13,829 nucleotides of DNA from positions 1 to 13,829 of the forward strand of contig BNUP01000053.1 in assembly GCA_025997455.1 (NCBI GenBank). Direction: 5' to 3'. Within the stretch, counting starts at the first letter, position 1. Each line of letters starts with the position of its first letter. This document shows positions 3,458 to 13,829 of this stretch, piece by piece. The position numbers and the translations under genes are program-made. This DNA is from Fibrobacterales bacterium (GTDB taxonomy: Bacteria; Fibrobacterota; Fibrobacteria; Fibrobacterales; Fibrobacteraceae). Under the pieces are notes generated by a model. That model had not been told where the DNA came from, searched no databases, and was given only the letters and a program-made list of their open reading frames with translations.

Positions 3458-3545
3458 AAGGGTAAGGTAGTTAATTTAGAGTAGAGTGTAAAGAGAAGAG
3501 AGTAAAGTTGAAAGTGGGGGTATAGGGTGTGGGGTGTGGGGGGAA
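3458..3545 (-). promoter_or_regulatory. Promoter module for the OmpH gene: G-heptamer array, CTCTTTA array, then TTAACTACCTTACCC with TACCTT 6 nt before the ATG
   Basis: The rc reads ...ccccccacaccccacaccctatacccccactttcaactttactctcttctctttacactctactctaaattaactaccttaccctt-ATG. Confidence 0.4.
3516..3544. repeat. GGGTRTG-type heptamer array (upstream of minus-strand OmpH gene)
   Basis: gggggtatagggtgtggggtgtgggggg. Confidence 0.85.
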
Positions 3546-3571: not shown

Positions 3572-3695
3572 ATAAGCATAGCCGCCCAATTAAAAAAAAA
3601 CGAGATAATCTGTATAAACAATGGCGGCAATAAGTATATCTGCCCTATTAAAAAGAAACCTGAGATAATCTGTATATACAATGGCAGAAAACCTG
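3572..3695. repeat. Two tandem ~61-bp AT-rich units inside copy A, each bounded by 6-bp inverted termini (GCCGCC...GGCGGC ; TCTGCC...GGCAGA)
   Basis: Unit 1 is ...gccgcccAATTAAAAAAAAACGAGATAATCTGTATAAACAATGGcggc. Unit 2 is ...tctgcccTATTAAAAAGAAACCTGAGATAATCTGTATATACAATGGcaga, ~80% identical. Copy B (9944-9994) has a single unit. Confidence 0.8.
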
Positions 3696-3749
3696 CCCTT
3701 AGCAGTGCAGAGTAAATTTAACAAGGGAACGCGGTGTGGATAGAACAAC

Positions 3750-3771
3750 AAAAGCCAAGAGTTTGGCTTTT
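3750..3771. terminator. Perfect 9-bp stem hairpin AAAAGCCAA-GAGT-TTGGCTTTT flanked by an A-run and a T-run (bidirectional terminator-like); a second copy lies at 9853-9874
   Basis: The stem and loop are read directly. A-tracts on the 5' side and T-tracts on the 3' side make it look like an intrinsic terminator on either strand. It lies inside the ~400-bp repeat and is followed by three more hairpins (3779-3794, 3817-3835, 3843-3864). Confidence 0.35.
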
Positions 3772-3865
3772 GTAGAGAGAGTGCTTTAGCACTCGTAAGT
3801 TCAGGTTTTTATATACATTGCAAACTCCTTGCAATTCTAAAAGGGCGGGTTAAAAACCACGCCCC

Positions 3866-3939
3866 TACAATTCCTTTCTCCACACCCCACACCCCACACC
3901 CCAACTTGCACCGCCGAGTGATTTTCTACATTCCCTCCT
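3866..3939 (+). promoter_or_regulatory. Promoter module for the lipoprotein/GT-C operon: C-heptamer array, TTGCACCGCCGAGTG (3906-3920), ATTTTCTACATTCCC (TACATT 3927-3932), 7 nt, then ATG 3940
   Basis: Read directly from the sequence. The -35-like TTGCAC and -10-like TACATT are separated by 16 nt. Confidence 0.45.
3881..3905. repeat. CCCCACA heptamer array (upstream of + strand lipoprotein gene)
   Basis: cacaccccacaccccacaccccaac. Confidence 0.9.
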
Positions 3940-4731
3940 ATGAAAAAACTCCTCTCACTTTTTGCAGTATCTGCGCTTGCCCTTGTGGCTTGCAAAAGCA
4001 CCGGCTCGGTATCGGGCACAGTCATTGACCCATTCACGGGAAAAGCGGTTGAACTCCCAACCGTATATGTAAAGGGAACAACATTCTCTTCGCAAAAAAT
4101 ACCGGGCGGTTTGCCGGACGGAACTTTTAAGTTTGAAGGTATTGAGGAAGGAACTTACACGGTGGAGGCGGGCAAAGGTAAATACTCCAAAGGGCATACG
4201 GAATTTACAATTTCAAAAGATGCCGCTAATGCTAAGGCAGATATTTACATTTACAGTCAGAGCACAGACCCCGGACTTTACCGACCTGTAGAAGGTGCGA
4301 ACGCCGAAAAAATCAGTGCGAGAGCAATTTTCCAGCCGATTTGCAAAGAAACGGGAATTGCATTTAGAACAAAATTCACCGTTGAAAATCCGCAAACAAA
4401 AAAGAAAGATGAAAATGTTTTGCCTGCACCGGTAGATGTTCCGCCAGATGTGACTCTGCTCATTAAAATTGCAACTTCCGTGTCCTCACCGATTGAGGCG
4501 ACCTCCTACCCCATACTCACCGAATCTGCAAAAAAACACGCCGATTGCGATGGTGTAGATCCAAAGGAAACTCTGATCGTCCCGAACCTAAGCAAAGGAA
4601 CGGTGATTCCCTCTGCCTACAAGAGTGAAAATTTATACGAAATTAAAGGTTCATTGCAGAGCGGAAAACAAATTCTTGCGATTAAGCAAGATGGTAAATT
4701 GGTAAATGCCTACTATATAAACGCGAAGTGA
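3940..4731 (+). CDS. lipoprotein with an N-terminal carboxypeptidase-regulatory-like (CarbopepD_reg) beta-sandwich domain
   Basis: Lipobox MKKLLSLFAVSALALVAC. SGTVIDPFTGKAVELPTVYVKGT...DGTFKFEGIEEGTYTV fits CarbopepD_reg_2. Its stop overlaps the next gene's start (GTGA at 4728-4731). Confidence 0.8.
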   Translation: MKKLLSLFAVSALALVACKSTGSVSGTVIDPFTGKAVELPTVYVKGTTFSSQKIPGGLPDGTFKFEGIEEGTYTVEAGKGKYSKGHTEFTISKDAANAKADIYIYSQSTDPGLYRPVEGANAEKISARAIFQPICKETGIAFRTKFTVENPQTKKKDENVLPAPVDVPPDVTLLIKIATSVSSPIEATSYPILTESAKKHADCDGVDPKETLIVPNLSKGTVIPSAYKSENLYEIKGSLQSGKQILAIKQDGKLVNAYYINAK

Positions 4732-7196
4732 TTACGAGTCGTTTTCTTTTTCCATTGATTTACACTGCACCTGTGCTCGCAGGTGCGTTGTTGTTATTCC
4801 AAAAAATTCCGCAAAATTCCGCAAAATACTTAGATATTGAATTTGGTTATTATGCAATTCTCTCCGTCTTTTTGTGGTTTTGCATCGCTTTAATTTGGAA
4901 TGCAAAAGAGATTTTTAATAGGGTAAAAGAGACTCTGCCGTCACGGAAGGCTGCTTGCGGACTCGGCGTTTTGCTTGTTGCATTTGCGGCGTTTGCTCTC
5001 ACTCAAATTGACCTTCGGCACAGAGTTTTGAGCGATGAGACGAGTTGGGAATCGATGGCTTTGGAGATGCGTTTTAATAAAAGCGGCGGAGTGTGTAATC
5101 AGGGGGTGTGGAAAGACGGCGTTTTGGAATGCCGAGATGTTGTGAATAATTTTAAGGGTAAGGCGTTTGCACTTGCGCAATCCTTAGCATTTTTATTTTT
5201 AGAACCGAACAGGGACACTTCCCTACTGCTGAATTTACCTCTTGCTCTCGGCTCAATTGCTCTTTTATTTTTTGCATTATTTCGATTTACCCGCGATGAA
5301 TATCTCGCTCTCACGGCGGCGATTTTTTTGGCGAGTATGCCGATTTTTCTGTTTCAGTCCCGTTCCGCATCTACCGAAGTTTTATATGTGTTTTTATTCG
5401 CTTTACTTTTGTGCATATACTCGCTTGTGCCTCCAAAAGAAATTAGTGTTCGGCATTTTGCACTCATAATTCCGTTGCTCGGACTCTTTGCACAGACGAG
5501 GCAGGAGACCGTTTTTTGTTTTATTCCCTTTGCGTTGTATTATCACGCCTATTTTAGAGAAAAAACTTGGCGATTGCCGATTTTTGTTTTTTTGGTTATT
5601 TTTGCGAGTTGGGTTTCTATAAATACAATGATAGCCTACCGCGGTTACGATTTTCAAGGCGGTGAGCATTCTGCACATTCCATTGCAAATTTTATTTACA
5701 ACTTTAAGTCAGATGTTAAAATTATGTGGAATGCGGGACTTGGCAACAACGGTCTTTTGAAAAATCCATTCTACACAACTTATACTTTGCTTTTGTTTGC
5801 AAGTTCAATTTGGTTGCTTTACAGAATAATTTTTCGGCGAAAATATTTGTGGTCGGGATTGTTGTTCGCCTTGTTTTGTTTGCAAATTGCGGTGATACTT
5901 TTTAATGTGTCGGGCACTTTTGAAATTGACATAAATCAGAGGTATGTTTTGGTTGCGTTGCCGTTGTTTGCGATTATTATGGCGGTTGGTTTTTGTGATA
6001 TATTTAAATGTCGCTTATTAGGTTCTGACGACTTATTAACGGGTTCTTCAGAGCCTGCTAAAAATTCAAAATTCGTCTGTATTTTGGCGGCTGTGCTCGC
6101 GGTTTATCTTTCGTTTCATCACAAAGAGAGTTTTAATGCTAACATTTTATATAGCCGAAATATGCTTCTCTCAGAGGAAGATTTTTTGAATACGGAGTTA
6201 AAAAAACTCCCGTCAAATTCAGTTTTTATTTATGCCAGACCTTGGCAAATGCTCGCAAGCGGTTTAACCGGATTTTCAGAACGGCAATTTTTGGGTTGGT
6301 CGCCAAAAGAATTGGATGATATGAGAAATTTTTCCGATGATAACATTTACATTGTGCGCGGGCAAGACGGCTATGGCGAGGTGAATAGAAATTCGCGGGT
6401 GGTCGGTTTTAAAACGACTTCAACAATAGATGCAATTTTGCAGGATTATGCAAATAATAAAATTTTTTCTGTGAATAAGCCCTTCGGTTATCCGCTTGAG
6501 GCATATAAAATCGGAAGGAAAAGAGGAGAATCGAAATATGAAAATTATTACAAACTTTATTTTGATGTGGGCGATTCGGCATTGAAAGTTTCGGTATCAA
6601 CTCCAGAGAATACTTCTAATTCAGAGACGAAAAACATTTTAGCAACGGAAAATTACGAACTTCTTTTGGATAACAAGTTTTATGAAAAAGGAAATGAAAA
6701 ATCGGCAGGTATGCATTACGCAACTTTAACTGCATTTGTCGAAGGCGATACCATAAAAAAGGAAACGCAATTTTTTGTTAGAAGTGAAAATAATCGACTT
6801 TTGCAGGATACAAAACCGAACAGTTGGGAGCAGAGTTGGAGCGAGCCTAAATACGGAAAATCGGTGGAAGGAAATACCATAAAAATTGACGGCAGAATTT
6901 TTGAATATGGGATAGGCTCTCATTCGCCTTCAAAATTAGTATGGGATATAAACGGCAAATACAAAAAATTTCACGGTTTTATTGGCTTAGATGATGAATC
7001 TGCGTGCGGGAACGGAGTTATTTATATTGTAAAAGGAGATGGTAAATCGCTTTACAAATCACGAGTTCTCGCCTCGCACGAATTGGATTCTCTTGAAGTA
7101 AATTTGGACGGAATTAAAACACTTGAACTTGAAACACTCGACAACGGCGATAAAGACTGCGACCACGCAAATTGGGCAGGTGCGTGGCTTGAATAG
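4728..7196 (+). CDS. polytopic membrane protein: ArnT/PMT-like GT-C glycosyltransferase N-terminal domain fused to a C-terminal NPCBM carbohydrate-binding domain
   Basis: 822 aa, GTG start overlapping the upstream stop. There are about 12 hydrophobic helices in the first ~430 aa, with an SDETSWESMALEM loop motif resembling the DExxYxExxxEM signature of GT39/GT83 enzymes. The C-terminal ~140 aa (GIGSHSPSKLVWDINGKYKKFHGFIGLDDESACGNGVIYIVKGDGKSLYKS...CDHANWAGAWL) matches the NPCBM/NEW2 consensus. Confidence 0.8.
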   Translation: MITSRFLFPLIYTAPVLAGALLLFQKIPQNSAKYLDIEFGYYAILSVFLWFCIALIWNAKEIFNRVKETLPSRKAACGLGVLLVAFAAFALTQIDLRHRVLSDETSWESMALEMRFNKSGGVCNQGVWKDGVLECRDVVNNFKGKAFALAQSLAFLFLEPNRDTSLLLNLPLALGSIALLFFALFRFTRDEYLALTAAIFLASMPIFLFQSRSASTEVLYVFLFALLLCIYSLVPPKEISVRHFALIIPLLGLFAQTRQETVFCFIPFALYYHAYFREKTWRLPIFVFLVIFASWVSINTMIAYRGYDFQGGEHSAHSIANFIYNFKSDVKIMWNAGLGNNGLLKNPFYTTYTLLLFASSIWLLYRIIFRRKYLWSGLLFALFCLQIAVILFNVSGTFEIDINQRYVLVALPLFAIIMAVGFCDIFKCRLLGSDDLLTGSSEPAKNSKFVCILAAVLAVYLSFHHKESFNANILYSRNMLLSEEDFLNTELKKLPSNSVFIYARPWQMLASGLTGFSERQFLGWSPKELDDMRNFSDDNIYIVRGQDGYGEVNRNSRVVGFKTTSTIDAILQDYANNKIFSVNKPFGYPLEAYKIGRKRGESKYENYYKLYFDVGDSALKVSVSTPENTSNSETKNILATENYELLLDNKFYEKGNEKSAGMHYATLTAFVEGDTIKKETQFFVRSENNRLLQDTKPNSWEQSWSEPKYGKSVEGNTIKIDGRIFEYGIGSHSPSKLVWDINGKYKKFHGFIGLDDESACGNGVIYIVKGDGKSLYKSRVLASHELDSLEVNLDGIKTLELETLDNGDKDCDHANWAGAWLE
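6018..6056. repeat. ~36-bp imperfect palindromic element (GGTTCTGACGAC-TTATTAACGG-GTTCTTCAGAGCC) lying in-frame inside the GT-C/NPCBM gene (encodes LGSDDLLTGSSEP)
   Basis: About 85% identical (28/33) to the intergenic element at 7401-7439. It sits at the junction between the TM domain and the extracytoplasmic region. Confidence 0.6.
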
Positions 7197-7204
7197 GGGG
7201 AAAT

Positions 7205-7399
7205 ATGAAATACGGAAAATTATCTGATGAAAAATTGACTGTTAAAAAGAAAAAGGTAAAGAGTGCAAAAATTGAAAAGAACGCAGTGGGAGCGGAAATT
7301 GAAAATAACGCGGAAACCTCGAATGTTGCGGAAGGAAAAAACTCCCTGCTAAAAATTCGGGAAAAAATTTTAAACGCAATTGCAGTGATTAAAAAGTAG
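7205..7399 (+). CDS. hypothetical Lys-rich small protein (64 aa)
   Basis: The ORF lies 8 nt after the upstream stop and is preceded by GGGGGAAAT. It is low complexity (KKKKVKSAKIEK) with no recognisable domain, and could be a spurious or small disordered protein. Confidence 0.35.
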   Translation: MKYGKLSDEKLTVKKKKVKSAKIEKNAVGAEIENNAETSNVAEGKNSLLKIREKILNAIAVIKK

Positions 7400-7400
7400 A

Positions 7401-7439
7401 GTAGGCTCTGATGACCTCTTAACGAGTTCTTCAGAGATT
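7401..7439. repeat. Intergenic copy of the same ~36-bp palindromic element (GGCTCTGATGAC-CTCTTAACGA-GTTCTTCAGAG) between convergent genes. It could act as a bidirectional terminator hairpin.
   Basis: Arms CTCTGATGAC / GTTCTTCAGAG form a ~10-bp imperfect stem. It lies between the stop of the 7205-7399 ORF and the stop of the MbfA-like gene. Confidence 0.6.
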
Positions 7440-7442
7440 ACT

Positions 7443-8318
7443 TTACAACTCTATTCCCAGAAAGTGCTTGACCAACTGTGCAATGGCAAACGACACAACG
7501 GAAACCAAAGCACACAAGCCGAACATTTCAAAAAAACGAGTTTTGAATTTCAAATCCTTAGCAACCGAAATATAATAGTTGAACGCCGCTATTATAAACA
7601 CAACAACGGCGAACATAGTAAGCAATGCGTGCAAATACATTTCCTTGGGAAACAGGAGATAAGGTGCAGTCATTAACGCAACGGTTACAAGATACATCGC
7701 TCCTGTGTAAAAACTCGATTTAACTGCTTGCGGATCGCCGTCTGCTTTTGCACTCAGGTAAGCGGAGGCAGTCATTGAAAGAGTCGCAGAAATTCCCGTT
7801 ATGAGACCCGCGAGTGCAACCATTCGAGTATTCTGCAATGCAAATGAAAAACCTGCGAGCGCACCAGTCAGTTCCACAAGTGCATCGTTCATACCGAGCA
7901 CCATAGACCCGACGAATTTCAATCGTTCTTCGTCTAACATATTTATTAAAACTTTTTCGTGCCGTTCTTCATCTGCACGAACTTGTGCGACTTCGGGAAA
8001 TTGGTCTATGAATTTGGAATAATTGACAACCGCAGAAGTTTCACCTTTTTCGAGAAATTTTATCATAAAAGTAAAACCGAAAAGTTTAGCAAAAAATAAA
8101 CTCATATTGACATGAAACCAATTCGCTTTAAGTTTTTTTCCCGTATATTTAGCCCATATTTTTTCGTGGTGGCTTTCGTCTATTGCCAAGTTTTCCAAAA
8201 TCTCACCGTTTTTTTCGCCGATTTTTTTCGCTATGCGTGAATATATCGTCGCACTGTCTGCCTCGCATTGTTGCATAAAGCAGAAGAATTTTGATGTTTT
8301 CGCCGAGAGAGTTGCCAT
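7443..8318 (-). CDS. erythrin-VIT1 family membrane ferritin / iron exporter (MbfA-like: N-terminal ferritin-like diiron domain + C-terminal VIT1/CCC1 transporter domain)
   Basis: Two E-x-x-H diiron motifs (DESHHEKIW, DEERHEKVL) form a rubrerythrin/erythrin-like N-terminal domain. They are followed by the VIT1 signature (GMNDALVELTGALAGFS) and 4-5 TM helices. TACCTT box 7 nt upstream of the ATG. Confidence 0.85.
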   Translation of the reverse strand: MATLSAKTSKFFCFMQQCEADSATIYSRIAKKIGEKNGEILENLAIDESHHEKIWAKYTGKKLKANWFHVNMSLFFAKLFGFTFMIKFLEKGETSAVVNYSKFIDQFPEVAQVRADEERHEKVLINMLDEERLKFVGSMVLGMNDALVELTGALAGFSFALQNTRMVALAGLITGISATLSMTASAYLSAKADGDPQAVKSSFYTGAMYLVTVALMTAPYLLFPKEMYLHALLTMFAVVVFIIAAFNYYISVAKDLKFKTRFFEMFGLCALVSVVSFAIAQLVKHFLGIEL

Positions 8319-8410
8319 TGTGGGGAAGGTAGAAAGTTTGCACGCGGCGGTGCAGATTAGGGTGTAGGGTATGGGGTGTAGGGTGTGGGGAACTCGGCGT
8401 TGCAGAGGAA
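8319..8410 (-). promoter_or_regulatory. Promoter module for the MbfA-like gene: CTGCAACGCCGAGTT, C-heptamer array, TAATCTGCACCGCCGCGTGCAAAC, then TTTCTACCTTCCCC with TACCTT 7 nt before the ATG
   Basis: The rc of this interval is about 95% identical over ~90 nt to 10081-10170 upstream of the epimerase gene. Confidence 0.45.
8359..8390. repeat. GGGTRTG-type heptamer array (upstream of minus-strand MbfA-like gene)
   Basis: tagggtgtagggtatggggtgtagggtgtgggg. Confidence 0.9.
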
Positions 8411-8418
8411 ACCATAAA

Positions 8419-8745
8419 CTACGGTATTGGGTAAAACACCCCGTATCTGTCGTGCAGGTATTCTTTTTCGTTGTAAATGGGTTTTATCAATTCTAATTTT
8501 GCAGGAGTTCCAGCGTTGTTCAAACTGTCTGCAATTTCAGCCGCCCGTGCTGCACCCAATAGTTGCCCGATTACGAAAATTGTGTCGCCAAACGCACTTC
8601 CGTTTTCATATCTTTTTAATTCGACTTCTTTTTTTGCAAAGTTCAGAGTGCTCTCTTCGCGCATAACTATGTATAACACCAAAGCGGCATATATTATTAG
8701 GATAACACAAGCACTTCTTAAAATTGTAAAAAAAATTCTTTTCAT
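8419..8745 (-). CDS. hypothetical small membrane-anchored protein (108 aa)
   Basis: A single N-terminal TM helix (ILRSACVILIIYAALVLYIVM) followed by a soluble domain. It lies downstream of the SPFH gene on the same strand, separated by two hairpins. No family assigned. Confidence 0.5.
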   Translation of the reverse strand: MKRIFFTILRSACVILIIYAALVLYIVMREESTLNFAKKEVELKRYENGSAFGDTIFVIGQLLGAARAAEIADSLNNAGTPAKLELIKPIYNEKEYLHDRYGVFYPIP

Positions 8746-8875
8746 CTCTTTTCATCTCGTTAGAAGGGGTGTTCTTTTTGCAATGACAAACTGCCGAAGG
8801 GGTAGCGGAAAACACGCGTAGGGGCGGAGTTTGCCCGCCCATTATGCGCGGTTGGAGCGAGGGGAAGGCTTTCCC

Positions 8876-9685
8876 CTACCTGACATCTAAAAAGGGAATC
8901 GGTGCATTGCCGCCCATATAAGTCGGGAGTTGTCCGTTCCATTTTTCAATGGATTTTAAGTTCACATAATCTTTGCCGCCCTGTGCACGAATTGCATCTG
9001 CCTGAATGCGTATGGATTCCGCCTCGCCGCGTGCCTGTGCAATTTTTTGGTCTGCCTCAACCTTAATCCGTTCCAAGTTATTTTTCGCCGTGAGTGCCTT
9101 TTGCTCCGCGACTTGCTTGTCCTCAATCGCCTCGTTAAATCCCTTGCTGAAATCGAAGTTGGTAATTTGCACGCCGCCCGCATCGACAATTATATTGTAG
9201 TCCAAAAGTTGCCTCGTTAAACTCTCGGAAATTTCGTTTTTCACCTGCTCACGCATAGTGAGTAATTCCTCCGCCGCGTATCTCGCCACAACCGCTTTAA
9301 CCGTTTCCTGTATGCGCGCCGCGATAATTTTGTTCTCAACATCCAAGCCTACTGTCGAGTAGAGTTCTCTTAATTTGACTTGATCCAAGTGGTAGTTTAG
9401 GGTGAGAACGGTTGAGACAATCTGCATATTTTTAGATGCCGCCTGTGCCGGTGCCTCTGCTTTTTGCGTGCGAATATCGACCTTTGAAATTGTTTGCATT
9501 ATCGGGATTTTGAAGTGCAAGCCCTCATCGCTCACCGATGTGATTTCGCCCCAAGTGAAGACCAACGCCTTTTCTCCCGAACGCACGGTGTAAAACGCAC
9601 CCGATACCACTATTGAGCCTATTACTATTGCGATTATTGCAACAGTGAGAAATTTTGTGCCTATGCTGCCATTTTGATTTACCAT
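8876..9685 (-). CDS. SPFH/band-7 (prohibitin/HflC-like) membrane protein
   Basis: N-terminal TM anchor (FLTVAIIAIVIGSIVVSGAF), then the typical SPFH core (YTVRSGEKALVFTWGEI...) and an Ala/Glu-rich coiled-coil tail (KQVAEQKALTAKNNLERIKVEADQKIAQARGEAE). TACATT box 6 nt upstream of the ATG. Confidence 0.9.
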   Translation of the reverse strand: MVNQNGSIGTKFLTVAIIAIVIGSIVVSGAFYTVRSGEKALVFTWGEITSVSDEGLHFKIPIMQTISKVDIRTQKAEAPAQAASKNMQIVSTVLTLNYHLDQVKLRELYSTVGLDVENKIIAARIQETVKAVVARYAAEELLTMREQVKNEISESLTRQLLDYNIIVDAGGVQITNFDFSKGFNEAIEDKQVAEQKALTAKNNLERIKVEADQKIAQARGEAESIRIQADAIRAQGGKDYVNLKSIEKWNGQLPTYMGGNAPIPFLDVR

Positions 9686-9760
9686 TATGGGAATGTAGAA
9701 AATTAACTCGGCAGTGCAAGTTGGGGTGTGGGGTGTGGGGTGTGGGGTGTGGAGAAAGGA
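9686..9760 (-). promoter_or_regulatory. Promoter module for the SPFH gene: C-heptamer array (on the gene's coding strand), TTGCACTGCCGAGTT, AATTTTCTACATTCCC, 6 nt, then ATG
   Basis: The rc reads ctccacaccccacaccccacaccccaacttgcactgccgagttaattttctacattcccata-ATG. It is homologous to 3881-3939. Confidence 0.45.
9723..9752. repeat. GGGGTGT heptamer array (upstream of minus-strand SPFH gene)
   Basis: ggggtgtggggtgtggggtgtggggtgtgg. Confidence 0.9.
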
Positions 9761-9767
9761 ATTGTAG

Positions 9768-9794
9768 GGGCGTGGTTTTTAACCCGCCCTTTTA
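9768..9794 (+). terminator. Hairpin GGGGCGTGG-TTTTTAA-CCCGCCC followed by TTTT (terminator-like on the + strand); the copy-A equivalent at 3843-3864 points along the minus strand
   Basis: GC-rich stem of 8-9 bp with one bulge, immediately followed by a T4 run. In both copies it would stop transcripts leaving the inverted-repeat-bounded segment before they enter the neighbouring genes (epimerase or OmpH). Confidence 0.35.
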
Positions 9795-10030
9795 GAATTG
9801 CAAGGAGTTTGCAATGTATATAAAAACCTGAACTTACGAGTGCTAAAGCACTCTCTCTACAAAAGCCAAACTCTTGACTTTTGTTGTTCTATCCACACCG
9901 CGTTCCCTTGTTAAATTTACTCTGCACTGCTAAGGGCATGTTTTCTGCCATTGTATATACAGATTATCTCAGGTTTCTTTTTAATAGGGCAGATATACTT
10001 ATTAAAACCTGCCCCTACAATTTCCCATTT

Positions 10031-10060
10031 CCCCCCCACACCCCACACCCTACACCCCAC
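10031..10060. repeat. CCCYACA heptamer array, the inner of two arrays upstream of the epimerase gene
   Basis: cccccccacaccccacaccctacaccccac. Confidence 0.85.
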
Positions 10061-10080
10061 TTTTCACTTTTCACTTTCAA

Positions 10081-10170
10081 CTTCTGCAACGCCAAGTTCC
10101 CCACACCCTACACCCCATACCCTACACCCTAATCTGCACCGCCGCGTGCAAACTTTCTACCTTCCCTCCA
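10081..10170 (+). promoter_or_regulatory. Promoter module for the epimerase/LtaS-like operon: CTGCAACGCCAAGTT, C-heptamer array, TAATCTGCACCGCCGCGTGCAAAC, TTTCTACCTTCCC (TACCTT 10158-10163), 7 nt, then ATG 10171
   Basis: Read directly from the sequence. It duplicates the MbfA-like gene's 5' module. Confidence 0.45.
10099..10130. repeat. CCCYACA heptamer array, proximal and upstream of the epimerase gene
   Basis: ccccacaccctacaccccataccctacaccct. This and its flanks are near-identical to rc(8319-8410) upstream of the MbfA-like gene. Confidence 0.9.
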
Positions 10171-11244
10171 ATGAACATTTTAGTCACCGGTGCGGCAGGG
10201 TTTATAGGGAATGCGGTTTCTTTATCGCTTCTTGCACGAGGACATTCCGTGCTCGGACTCGATAACTTAAACGATTATTATTCTGTGGAACTCAAAAAAG
10301 CAAGGCTTGGCAGATGCAAAGAATTTGCAGAACAAGGTTTATTTTCATTTAAGCAATTAGACATAACAAACACGGAAGACATCAATAAATTTTTCGGCGA
10401 AAATAAATTTGACAGCGAAAATAAAGTAATCTCAGAAGAACTCCTCAAAACTTTACCTCATAAAACAACAAGTTCTTCAGTTCCAACTAAATTTGACGGA
10501 ATAATTCATTTGGCGGCGCAGGCTGGAGTCCGCTACAGTTTGGAAAATCCATACACATATATAGATACAAACATAAAAGGCACTCTAAATTTACTTGAAG
10601 CGTGCCGCAGAAATTCCATAGATAATTTTGTCTATGCGAGCAGCAGTTCCGTTTATGGAGACAATGCAAAAATTCCGTTCAGCACCGAAGACATCGCAGA
10701 TTTTCCCGTCAGTTTATACGCCGCAACCAAACGGAGCACCGAACTAATCGCCCACACATATTCGCACTTATTCGGTATTAAAGCGGTGGGACTCAGGTTT
10801 TTTACGGTTTATGGCGAATGGGGAAGACCAGATATGGCTCCTATGCTTTTTGCGAAAAACATTTTGGCAGATCGCCCAATAAAAATTTTCAACAACGGGA
10901 ATATGCGCAGGGATTTCACATATATAGATGATATTGTGAATGGGACAATTGGAATTTTTGAATGGAATGCCGCACGCAAAATTATTGAAAATGATAAAAA
11001 TGCCGCGAGAACTTTTAACATAGGTCGCGGTGAGCCTGTGGATCTTTTGAATTTTGTGGAAGTTTTGGAAAACGAATTGGGAAAAAAAGCCGAAAAAGAA
11101 TTTTTACCTATGCAGGCGGGCGATGTTCCAGTAACTTGGGCAGACACTTCCGCACTCGAAAAAGTAATCGGTTACAAACCATCGGTTTCCTTAGCACAAG
11201 GCGTTAAAAATTTTGCAAAATGGTATAAATCATATTATGCTTAA
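10171..11244 (+). CDS. NAD-dependent sugar-nucleotide epimerase of the SDR family, UDP-glucuronate 4-epimerase-like, carrying a 28-aa in-frame insertion
   Basis: MNILVTGAAGFIGNAVSLSLLARGHSVLGLDNLNDYYSVELKKARL...IHLAAQAGVRYS...YASSSSVYG...YAATK... matches the GalE/UDP-GlcA-4-epimerase (Cap1J/WbpP-like) pattern with the YxxxK catalytic motif. Confidence 0.9.
   Translation: MNILVTGAAGFIGNAVSLSLLARGHSVLGLDNLNDYYSVELKKARLGRCKEFAEQGLFSFKQLDITNTEDINKFFGENKFDSENKVISEELLKTLPHKTTSSSVPTKFDGIIHLAAQAGVRYSLENPYTYIDTNIKGTLNLLEACRRNSIDNFVYASSSSVYGDNAKIPFSTEDIADFPVSLYAATKRSTELIAHTYSHLFGIKAVGLRFFTVYGEWGRPDMAPMLFAKNILADRPIKIFNNGNMRRDFTYIDDIVNGTIGIFEWNAARKIIENDKNAARTFNIGRGEPVDLLNFVEVLENELGKKAEKEFLPMQAGDVPVTWADTSALEKVIGYKPSVSLAQGVKNFAKWYKSYYA
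10414..10497. mobile_element. 84-bp in-frame insertion in the epimerase gene flanked by a 9-10-bp direct repeat (T)AAATTTGAC (10404-10413 and 10488-10497), with an internal inverted repeat CAGAAGAACT...AGTTCTTCAG
   Basis: The DRs are read directly. The insert encodes SENKVISEELLKTLPHKTTSSSVPTKFD between a duplicated KFD immediately before the conserved IHLAAQAGVRYS. UDP-GlcA epimerases normally have a single KFD-like tripeptide directly before xVIHLAAQ. Confidence 0.55.
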
Positions 11245-13159: not shown

Positions 13160-13829
13160 CTGCACACTTTGTTCCTTCCGCGTTCCTTCGCCTCATATAA
13201 TTTTGCATCTGCCATTTTATATAAAACCTCGTTTGATGTCTCGGCAGAGGGAACAATACTCGCCACACCCGCACTAACCGTAATTTGCACTCTTTCGCCG
13301 CTTGCGTTAAAAACTTCGGCAATTTCTATTTTTTTCCTAACTTCTTCCGCTACAACCAGAGCGCCTTCGAGTGCAGTTCCTGGTAACAGCAAACCGAACT
13401 CCTCACCGCCCAAGCGCGATGCAGTATCACTTACCCTATGCACCGAATTCAACAAAACATTTCCGATGGTTTTCAAAACCTCATCACCGACCTGATGACC
13501 GTGTAAATCGTTTATATTCTTAAATTTATCTGCATCAAAAATAATAAACGAAAGGGAATTTTTCTCCCTCATCATCCGCGAAAATTCTCGGGTCATACTA
13601 TCGCCGAATGCTCGCCTGTTGTAGAGGTTCGTGAGGGAATCCGTGAAAGACAACTTCTCGACAATCGCCCTCTGCAATGCCTCATTTCTTATAGTCTTAA
13701 TCAAAATAATGCTAATCACCAAACTTGCAAACACAATAACAAGCGTGGGCGAAACAAAATTTTTGGTAATTATTAAATTTGACATATTCTCAATACTGCT
13801 TTTAGGTATTAACAACACCAATTTCCAAT
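13156..13829 (-). CDS. GGDEF-domain diguanylate cyclase; 5' end uncertain (frame open to window edge; internal ATG candidate at 13785)
   Basis: SLTNLYNRRAFGD...IIFDADKFKNINDLHGHQVGDEVL...RLGGEEFGLLL...YEAKERGRNKV is a canonical GGDEF (GGEEF) domain preceded by one TM helix. The track start is TTG, and the frame has no stop through 13829. Its stop codon shares TTAA with the convergent upstream gene's stop. Confidence 0.8.
   Translation of the reverse strand, partial: WKLVLLIPKSSIENMSNLIITKNFVSPTLVIVFASLVISIILIKTIRNEALQRAIVEKLSFTDSLTNLYNRRAFGDSMTREFSRMMREKNSLSFIIFDADKFKNINDLHGHQVGDEVLKTIGNVLLNSVHRVSDTASRLGGEEFGLLLPGTALEGALVVAEEVRKKIEIAEVFNASGERVQITVSAGVASIVPSAETSNEVLYKMADAKLYEAKERGRNKVCS

Follow-up and report, generated by a model that had tools for sequence, protein, structure and literature searches.

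In-frame insertions of palindromic repeats are already known from other bacteria. Those of the Rickettsia palindromic elements (RPEs) owe their tolerance to a position on the surface of the protein. REPs and REPINs, which RAYT (TnpA-REP) transposases mobilise, are imperfect palindromes of 20-40 nt, often found just after stop codons and with a conserved GTAG-like tetranucleotide beside the stem. RPEs are palindromic repeats carried in-frame by unrelated, otherwise conserved genes, to which they add a peptide segment, with one conserved peptide per family (PMC10969869). Bacterial MITEs (Correia/NEMIS, ERIC, Chunjie) are short, A+T-rich, hairpin-forming and multi-copy, usually intergenic and sometimes part of in-frame fusions, and their young copies are flanked by direct repeats (PMC10969869).

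The locus described here comes from the single-cell genome of an uncultured termite-gut Fibrobacterales bacterium and lies on a contig of 13.8 kb, all of which was analysed (the window, 13,829 nt). It carries a real, lineage-specific in-frame insertion of 84 bp inside an epimerase gene, and part of the inserted DNA resembles two hairpins, A and B, elsewhere on the same contig (Table 1).

Table 1. Coordinates of the insertion, its host gene and the related hairpins within the window.
Feature	Position	Strand	Description	Basis
Host gene, epimerase	10171-11244	+	357 aa, NAD-dependent; resembles UDP-glucuronate 4-epimerases; intact	
Extra nucleotides	10414-10497	+	84 nt = 28 codons, residues 82-109, SENKVISEELLKTLPHKTTSSSVPTKFD; one of several equivalent delimitations	homologue alignment, AF2 pLDDT, reading frames
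First TAAATTTGAC copy	10404-10413	+	13 nt (AAATAAATTTGAC) with one mismatch allowed	repeat search
Second TAAATTTGAC copy	10488-10497	+	encodes (T)KFD before GIIHLAAQ	repeat search, alignment
Tandem repeat	10384-10425	+	period 18 nt, 2.3 copies, 87% matches (NKFFGE / NKFDSE / NK...)	TRF score 63
Element C	10426-10487	-	62-nt hairpin unit, opposite orientation to A and B	arm and flank comparison
22-nt segment	10422-10443	-	21/22 identical to 7424-7445 (reverse complement), which comprises hairpin B's right arm and 9 nt of its flank	blastn E 2e-5
Inverted repeat	10435-10478		GAAGAACT (10435-10442) / AGTTCTTC (10471-10478), 8 bp perfect, 28-nt loop	DNA fold, RNA fold
Element B	7396-7446	+	51-nt imperfect palindrome, core 7402-7436	folds, repeat search
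Element A	6019-6053	+	35-nt hairpin, in-frame (LLGSDDLLTGSSEP)	30/35 identical to B

The epimerase and its extra residues

The host protein (GHV14651.1; locus-tag prefix AGMMS49938; BioProject PRJDB10679) matches Pfam Epimerase (E 8e-55), its homologues are annotated as UDP-glucuronate 4-epimerase, and its PDB matches by phmmer include 5u4q (E 1e-106) and 6zl6, BcUGAepi (E 6e-52). A Foldseek search with its AF2 model gave target-normalised TM-scores of 0.85-0.88 against UDP-GlcA 4-epimerase structures. All family-invariant residues are kept; G7, G10, G13, S157-S160, Y183 and K187 are invariant alignment columns with the host epimerase included. With its GxxGxxG NAD motif, catalytic Ser, YxxxK and fold, the protein can be classed by sequence and predicted fold as a UDP-glucuronate 4-epimerase-like extended SDR of predicted substrate specificity.

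The open reading frame translates as ...FFGENKFD, SENKVISEELLKTLPHKTTSSSVPTKFD, GIIHLAAQ, and the middle segment is the sole query-specific insertion in the epimerase relative to its 119 best homologues: the alignment columns are empty in all 119, as they are in the two PDB relatives whose alignments were inspected. The initial annotation, made from the sequence, had held that these 28 residues are missing from the usual enzymes and that the first KFD duplicates the one that directly precedes xVIHLAAQAGVRYS in homologous epimerases. Both points are confirmed, the former by the homologue alignment and the latter by the phmmer alignment to 5u4q, in which the two KFD copies fall on identical chain residues (78-80). 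The closest homologue has an uninterrupted site in its DNA (AGC AAT AAA ATA GAT GCT GTT), and the empty-site form of the present locus would read ...GGCGAAAATAAATTTGACGGAATA.... Of the six reading frames of the insertion, the epimerase uses the only open one. The GC content of the 62-84-nt unit is 32%, vs 39% for the gene.

In the AF2 model the extra loop sits between helix 68-77 and strand 110-113, with pLDDT below 50 for residues 80-106; the insertion is thus predicted to form a disordered surface loop of the Rossmann domain, between alpha3 and beta4, and the model bears out the surface-loop location initially proposed. It would adjoin the N-terminal end of a beta strand and lie on the Rossmann face away from the cofactor, where a disordered loop could be tolerated.

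Repeat anatomy of the insertion and its relatives on the contig

The decamer TAAATTTGAC had been described as an exact pair 84 nt (28 codons) apart, and the repeat search found it so. A third copy lies at 13774 (three matches in the window vs 0.10 expected), and 10-nt direct repeats within 150 nt of each other are common in the window (30 vs 2.3 in shuffles); the pair is meaningful because it coincides exactly with the insertion boundaries set by protein homology. The first 12 nt of the insertion (A + GCGAAAATAAA, 10414-10425) duplicate the sequence immediately upstream: the 11-nt GCGAAAATAAA recurs at 10397-10407 and 10415-10425, 18 nt apart, within the period-18 tandem repeat. This pair and the TAAATTTGAC pair are both parts of one 17-mer (10397-10413). 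The direct repeats fit two parses, one with 10 bp of TAAATTTGAC around 74 nt and the other with 4 bp of TAAA (10422-10425 and 10488-10491) around 62 nt plus an 18-bp tandem duplication. From the sequence, the latter appears to be the better parse: a composite of an 18-bp local tandem duplication and a 62-bp hairpin unit, element C, flanked by TAAA.

Separately, an exact 18-mer (5828-5845 and 10388-10405) is common to two conserved coding regions. It was rejected as a further insertion, as were direct repeats spaced 82-85 nt apart elsewhere in the window; all lie in ungapped conserved coding sequence.

Outside the promoter-cassette repeats, no dispersed match in the window reaches 20/22 except the pairing of 10422-10443 with 7424-7445, and both arms of element C resemble the right arm of B, one at 21/22 in reverse orientation and the other at 13/14 in direct orientation. 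Local alignment of 10422-10443 with B scored 39 (shuffle mean 15.7, sd 2.3; ~10 sd) and that of A with B 45 (shuffle mean 15.7, sd 2.1; ~14 sd), significance values that the over-represented short words of the window make somewhat optimistic. Judged by these alignments, C is solidly homologous to B over 22 nt, in its left part, and suggestively so over 14 nt more; no match was found for its 26-nt loop. The arms that had been drawn as an inverted pair, CAGAAGAACT and AGTTCTTCAG, do exist, but they are complementary at 9/10 rather than 10/10 positions, and the perfect part is 8 nt. Theirs is the sole inverted repeat in the insertion and it is sub-terminal, set 7-9 nt in from either end of the 62-nt unit; there is no complementarity between the terminal bases, and the insertion has no terminal inverted repeats. 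The DNA fold of the repeat (-4.0 kcal/mol, z -1.35) is no better than that of shuffles, and its RNA fold is -7.1 kcal/mol (z -1.94). Of the small palindromic element initially proposed, the relation to hairpins A and B stands.

Element B takes up the whole 43-nt spacer that separates the stop codons of two convergent open reading frames, 7205-7399 (+) and 7443-8318 (-). Its RNA fold has an energy of -22.1 kcal/mol for the + strand (z -4.9) and of -17.6 kcal/mol for the - strand (z -3.8). It is probably a terminator or transcript-end structure, terminator-like by position and stability alone: a simple terminator scan gave no site at B, and no T-run directly follows its stem. Element A (RNA fold -16.6 kcal/mol, z -3.3), which shares with B the loop plus both arms, is located in a length-variable loop between transmembrane helices of an 822-aa NPCBM-domain protein. 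An extra 50 nt here (6009-6058) hold A and are flanked by two TAAA (6005-6008 and 6059-6062), 54 nt apart; B has no such TAAA...TAAA bracketing. Since the loop at the A site is long in some relatives too, we infer rather than observe that A is an insertion. Long loops at this site in some relatives carry unrelated sequence, and those of P0124 and P0126 (L011 and L012) show neither a palindrome nor any likeness to A, B or C.

The arm core that the initial annotation had noted in common with elements at 6018 and 7401 (here 35 bp, starting at 6019 and 7402) is indeed present in all: GTTCTTCAG is common to the insertion, 6043-6051 and 7426-7434 (three matches vs 0.08 expected), and the match to the B arm plus flank makes the link stronger than was claimed. 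An arm of the type GTTCTTCWGAG occurs three times in the window vs 0.17 expected, and the motif is absent from the relatives' loci L008 and L009. The arm unit of the hairpin repeat is GAGTTCTTCWGAGATTAC, and its distance to the flanking TAAA/TTTA does not differ among the four such units present in A, B and C; a PWM built from these four found no further arms in the window except B's own left arm. The translated units are also related (C, KVISEELLKT..SSSVPT; B on the - strand, KVISEELVKRSSEPTL; A, GSDDLLTGSSEP). Element C thus looks like a divergent member of a family of short, dispersed hairpin repeats, of which the contig has at least two more copies.

The known copies of this repeat are three, all on the one contig. 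The initial annotation had looked to other genomic copies as a check; two more were found inside the contig, but in the public collections, scanned with one strict, degenerate 23-mer pattern covering A, B and C (TTRASGRGTTCTTCWGAGMYTRC), there were 2 hits in genomes (chance alone would give ~2) and 4 in metagenomes, each lacking the left arm, in unrelated taxa and attributable to chance. No Rfam family matches any hairpin of the window, and a domain search of the window found no transposase, RAYT-like gene or Y1-transposase domain.

Origin of the insertion

With a little more belief than doubt, we explain the segment as a lineage-specific in-frame insertion composed of an 18-bp duplication and a dispersed hairpin unit. 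One part is an 18-bp tandem duplication of the local GGCGAAAATAAATTTGAC, equal to six codons; it may be due to slippage, either before the insertion or, alternatively, by hairpin bypass afterwards. A 62-bp imperfect-palindrome unit, a diverged copy of the dispersed hairpin repeat represented by A and B, would have entered the second duplicate copy at TAAA, which could be either the target or the duplication of the unit. It may have arrived through mobility or a copy-and-insert mechanism resembling that of REPs or MITEs, driven by a putative enzyme. Persistence could then be due to a length that is a multiple of three, to the sole open frame of six being in register with the gene, and to the tolerance of the loop.

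The initial annotation, taken literally, had instead proposed a single non-autonomous 74-bp palindromic element (10414-10487) that transposed in and duplicated a 10-bp target, TAAATTTGAC. In its favor are the perfect direct repeat of 10 nt that marks the boundaries of the insertion exactly, an interior related to A and B and a total length that is a multiple of three. However, nucleotides 2-12 of such an element are GCGAAAATAAA, an exact repeat of host sequence upstream of the target, which is very unlikely for an unrelated incomer; the homology to B begins only at 10422; and the inverted repeat begins 19-21 nt inside the left end and 7-9 nt inside the right one, so that the element has no terminal inverted repeats. 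A clean element with a 9-10-bp target-site duplication is therefore quite unlikely, and the composite parse fits better. The 18-nt tandem repeat at the left edge would suit a purely local origin (slippage, tandem duplication and drift in A+T-rich DNA), with the likeness to A and B put down to word bias or chance. Local direct repeats of 10-12 nt are common in the window, short words are over-represented, the exact 18-mer mentioned above stands in chance-like coding contexts, the hairpin of C is not significantly stable, and the 23-mer pattern found no copies elsewhere in public genomes and metagenomes. Yet local duplication explains no more than 18 nt of the 84, no dispersed match outside the cassette repeats but the one to B (21/22) reaches 20/22, this match extends 9 nt past the arm, and both arms of C match B's right arm; we regard an exclusively local origin as unlikely.

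Since the contig derives from a single cell amplified by MDA-in-microcapsule, a method reported to give 6-8% chimeric reads, the segment could also be a chimera of multiple displacement amplification or of single-cell library assembly, absent from the cell itself. An intact epimerase protein is indeed missing from the Logan assembly, made independently from the same run (the epimerase, sulfatase-like and VIT proteins are not on record in the Logan contig index), but that assembly is fragmentary throughout the window, with neither of the two contigs compared (3899-7411 and 8375-9743) spanning the insertion, and the missing protein therefore says little. The segment is in-frame, stop-free in the only open frame and flanked by direct repeats, and its identity to the nearest possible donor is only 95% over 22 nt, whereas a chimera would be an exact copy; such an artefact is very unlikely. 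The arms might, finally, be an over-represented functional word (a DNA-uptake-type or protein-binding palindrome) that accumulated by point substitution, often as inverted pairs, and the 9-11-nt core does occur 3-4 times in 13.8 kb, in inverted pairs and once at a gene end. Substitution, however, cannot make a 28-codon insertion, A and B share the loop as well as both arms (30/35), and the likeness of B and C runs 9 nt past the arm, making this explanation extremely unlikely.

Returning to the composite reading and its hairpin unit, one Logan contig from the same read set ends inside B, at 7411. Of the four known ends of independent Logan contigs, the other three lie in known repeats, and the fourth weakly suggests that B, too, is multi-copy. 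If the unit is truly multi-copy, then selfish or structural repeat DNA would have been absorbed into coding sequence in a Fibrobacterota gut symbiont, and the epimerase would show by a natural example which loop of an extended short-chain dehydrogenase/epimerase can accommodate 28 extra, disordered residues. Short-read assemblies break at repeats of this kind, as the Logan contigs illustrate, and proteins from single-cell and metagenome-assembled genomes look more divergent than they are because of them. Should there be no further copies, the segment is a lineage-specific loop expansion of little general interest. We have met no reports of such elements in Fibrobacterota, in literature not specifically searched for them. 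Tentatively, and with clearly more doubt than belief, we suggest that termite-gut Fibromonadaceae-like bacteria may harbour an undescribed family of palindromic mobile repeats of ~40-60 bp, an independently arisen miniature RPE analogue in Fibrobacterota. Its symmetry would keep one open frame per strand (with a similar hydrophilic peptide, G/I-S-[DE]-[DE]-L-L ... S-S-E-P, in either orientation), so that one and the same unit could act between genes as a transcript-end hairpin and spread into the surface loops of conserved enzymes.

Comparison with known systems

The hairpin units share traits with each of the systems described at the outset. Like many REPs, B is found directly after stop codons. 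A motif of the tetranucleotide type precedes the left arm (GTAGG in B, TTAGG in A and GTTGG in C on the reverse strand), although little can be made of 4 nt seen in three copies. In layout C recalls a REPIN, with what look like two inverted arm units either side of a spacer. REPs, however, are extragenic by definition, whereas here B is extragenic and both A and C are inside open reading frames; moreover, the arm units are not themselves palindromes, and the window has no RAYT gene. With MITEs the unit has in common a size below 500 bp, a high A+T content and no coding capacity for a transposase, but MITEs are defined by terminal inverted repeats and by a related insertion sequence that supplies the transposase, while the repeat here is sub-terminal and 8 bp long.

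The analogy with RPEs drawn by the initial annotation holds for behavior (in-frame, in a surface loop) but does not extend to membership of the family, the units being 35-62 nt long and their host a member of the Fibrobacterales. RPEs are ~100-150 bp in length and belong to Rickettsia (Alphaproteobacteria), and the present elements in Fibrobacterota are set apart from them by both length and host, with no sequence relationship expected; the insertion here also includes an 18-bp duplication of host sequence. The likeness is one of behavior only: as with RPEs, two copies out of three sit in-frame within coding loops, their translations being related peptides, and the insertion adds a peptide at a tolerated position, C in a surface loop and A in a variable loop between transmembrane helices.

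A composite segment in the epimerase gene

The decamer TAAATTTGAC occurs at 10404-10413 and 10488-10497 of the epimerase gene, spaced 84 nt apart as the initial annotation had reported, and the 28 residues 82-109 (SENKVISEELLKTLPHKTTSSSVPTKFD) form the sole insertion particular to this protein, missing in 119/119 of the best homologues (56-70% identity, mostly Fibromonadaceae and other proteins annotated as UDP-glucuronate 4-epimerase). In the closest homologue the DNA runs uninterrupted at this position (AGC AAT AAA ATA GAT GCT GTT GTG CAT), and the match to PDB 5u4q splits so that both KFD copies fall on chain residues 78-80. The suggested loop placement also held in the AlphaFold2 model (28 sequences, mean pLDDT 81.7, pTM 0.85): pLDDT is below 50 at residues 80-106, between helix 68-77 and strand 110-113, and the remainder fits the UDP-glucuronate 4-epimerases 5u4q and 6zl6/6zla/6zll with target-normalised TM-scores of 0.85-0.88. 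The family-invariant residues are complete (GxxGxxG, the Ser cluster, Y183 and K187 among them). Since the N-terminal end of beta4 points away from the NAD cleft in the standard Rossmann topology, a disordered loop there is plausibly harmless.

The extra DNA is composite, comprising more than one unit. TRF reports a period-18-nt repeat at 10384-10425 (2.3 copies, 87% matches), and GCGAAAATAAA lies at 10397-10407 and again at 10415-10425. Both GCGAAAATAAA and TAAATTTGAC are overlapping parts of one 17-mer, GCGAAAATAAATTTGAC (10397-10413); a full copy of the 17-mer is therefore followed by a single nucleotide A, a partial copy (its first 11 nt), 62 nt (element C) and a second partial copy (its last 10 nt), and TAAA flanks the 62-nt part on either side. 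The inverted repeat described initially is present, but only 9/10 positions of the arms quoted can pair, and perfect complementarity extends over 8 nt.

Other short repeats touch this region. The near-palindromic 13-mer TTTTCGGCGAAAA lies at 5831-5843 and 10391-10403, the latter copy stopping 1 nt short of the first TAAATTTGAC; the core of the 13-mer, TCGGCGAAA, has four occurrences in all (0.27 expected), the others being at 8213-8221 and 8298-8306 (- strand). Direct repeats of 10-12 nt spaced 82-85 nt apart number four (5791/5874, 8212/8297, 9129/9211 and 10404/10488), and the pair at 5791/5874, which homologues place within ungapped conserved coding sequence of the 822-aa protein, is probably chance or word bias.

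Related hairpins A and B

Repeats and coding features in the window
Feature	Position	Description
Epimerase	10171-11244	NAD-dependent, 357 aa; Pfam Epimerase, E 8e-55
Element B	7396-7446	51-nt imperfect palindrome occupying the 43 nt that separate the stop codons of two convergent ORFs
Element A	6019-6053	30/35 identical to B; score 45 vs 15.7 +/- 2.1 for shuffles
Heptamer arrays	701-747, 903-943, 3509-3541, 3878-3904, 8351-8390, 9715-9752, 10034-10132	
Inverted upstream cassette pair	3629-3903 vs 9729-10003	275 nt, 99%
Inverted upstream cassette pair	8316-8406 vs 10083-10173	91 nt, 97%

The arm core GTTCTTCAG is indeed common to the insertion and to sites 6043 and 7426, within elements A and B. 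Positions 10422-10443 match the reverse complement of 7424-7445 at 21/22 nt (blastn-short E 2e-5; local alignment score 39 vs 15.7 +/- 2.3 for shuffles). Comparing the whole window against itself gave no second dispersed match of 20/22 or better once the promoter-cassette repeats were set aside. The second arm of C aligns with this same B arm in direct orientation at 13/14. All four arm units have identical spacing between GTTCTTCWG and the flanking TAAA/TTTA. Element B RNA folds strongly on both strands (-22.1 kcal/mol, z -4.9; -17.6 kcal/mol, z -3.8), and C, with a 28-nt loop, is the weakest hairpin of the three (DNA z -1.35, RNA z -1.94). Because the units are palindromically symmetric, each has one open frame per strand and the encoded peptides are similar: KVISEELLKT...SSSVPT in C, KVISEELVKRSSEPTL in B(-) and GSDDLLT.SSE in A(+)/B(+). 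The single open frame of the six in C is the one in register with the epimerase gene.

Element A is part of the reading frame of the 822-aa protein, giving LLGSDDLLTGSSEP in a loop that joins transmembrane helices and is 22 residues long here vs about 5 in many orthologues; the 50 additional nt are bracketed by two TAAA with a spacing of 54 nt. A few relatives have a long loop here too, of unrelated and non-palindromic sequence (the A-site loops of loci L011 and L012 have no similarity to A, B or C), so we only infer that A is an insertion. The exact 14-mer CCTGCTAAAAATTC adjoins the right end of hairpin A (6054-6067), and a second copy stands 44 nt upstream of B (7345-7358), which hints that the two loci may share more than the 35-nt hairpin, differently arranged. 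Compared with Fibromonadaceae orthologues, the same protein has about 11 further residues (...NTSNSETKNILA...) in a second lineage-specific segment (6600-6690, residues about 625-650), with no hairpin or repeat noticed there.

A degenerate 23-mer covering A, B and C gave only chance-level matches in public collections of other genomes and of metagenomes, all without the left arm; the arm motif was not found in the relatives' loci L008 and L009, and Rfam had no match for hairpins in the window. Another hairpin, unrelated in sequence to A, B and C, lies 33 nt past the hemerythrin-like ORF (1424-1465; GGTAACCTCTACCAACCTC ATAA GAGGTTGGTAGAGGTTACC); its 19-bp stem is perfect and its loop measures 4 nt.

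Repeat content and source of the contig

Gene content is ordinary (hemerythrin-like, FliN, histidine kinase, OmpH, CarboxypepD_reg, 822-aa NPCBM-domain membrane, VIT-family, SPFH, epimerase, sulfatase-family and GGDEF proteins), and domain annotation of the 13,829 bp revealed no transposase gene. Arrays of the heptamer GGGGTGT/CCCCACA (with GGGTGTA variants) occupy nearly every intergenic region, always upstream of genes, and yielded only sub-threshold noise in Rfam. The upstream cassettes are near-identical and common to different genes; the 91-nt pair extends into the first start-codon bases of the ORFs at 8318 (VIT, - strand; NCBI places the start later, at Met15) and 10171 (epimerase). The leader AAnTTTCTACnTTCCC stands just upstream of starts 3940 and 10171 (3920-3935, 10151-10166) and also at 944-959. 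Cassettes and leader may represent promoter or 5' UTR modules present in several copies; alternatively, recombination or assembly may have produced them.

The window spans an entire contig of a Fibrobacterales bacterium (locus tags AGMMS49938_*). It derives from read set DRR253688 of BioProject PRJDB10679, single-cell genomes of Reticulitermes speratus gut bacteria obtained by MDA in agarose microcapsules; a single Fibrobacteria genome is included, with a completeness of 72.8%. When tried on E. coli and a mock community, the method yielded 6-8% chimeric reads (PMC9579161). The independent Logan assembly of these reads is fragmentary throughout the window and is without several of its proteins, the epimerase among them. 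Two of its contigs cover 3899-7411 and 8375-9743, the insertion lying outside both; three of the four ends fall in heptamer or cassette repeats (3899, 8375, 9743) and one (7411) inside B, and for this last reason B may be repeated elsewhere in the genome.

Origin of the insertion and comparison with known elements

The observation made initially is confirmed and its interpretation supported in part. Taken literally, a single 74-bp element with a 10-bp target duplication would require nt 2-12 of the incoming DNA to equal the host flank by chance, and is an unlikely rival. Most economical are two events: a tandem duplication of 18 bp (6 codons) and the insertion, at TAAA in the second copy, of 62 bp (66 bp, or 22 codons, if a TAAA duplication is included). 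The 18-bp duplication may have come first, or it may have followed the insertion, through replication that skipped the hairpin and slipped backwards.

Purely local slippage is a less likely rival, to be weighed with both the 18-nt period and the dispersed match between C and B, and an MDA or assembly artefact an unlikely one, to be weighed with the chimera rate of the method and the single open frame in register with the gene. An over-represented functional word is a further, unlikely rival. Word usage in the window is biased: for instance, the exact 18-mer AATTTTTCGGCGAAAATA at 5828-5845 and 10388-10405 is conserved coding sequence in two genes, in different reading frames. Best supported is a short dispersed hairpin repeat that inserted, alongside a minor duplication of local sequence, into a loop able to accommodate it, the enzyme being conserved elsewhere. 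Caution is needed mainly because the copies number only three, all on one contig from an amplified single cell; the biased word usage of the window is a further reason.

Among known systems, REP-type elements come nearest as regards size and where copy B lies, but they are extragenic and the epimerase insertion is not; MITEs have terminal inverted repeats, which are missing here. The analogy drawn with Rickettsia palindromic elements stands for behaviour, in which they and intragenic MITE or ERIC copies, which make in-frame fusions (PMC10969869), come closest, but size and host both differ. As it lacks a defining feature of each family, the element is a small palindromic repeat placed in none of the three, and the hairpin family, if real, would be a further case of an already known kind of phenomenon.
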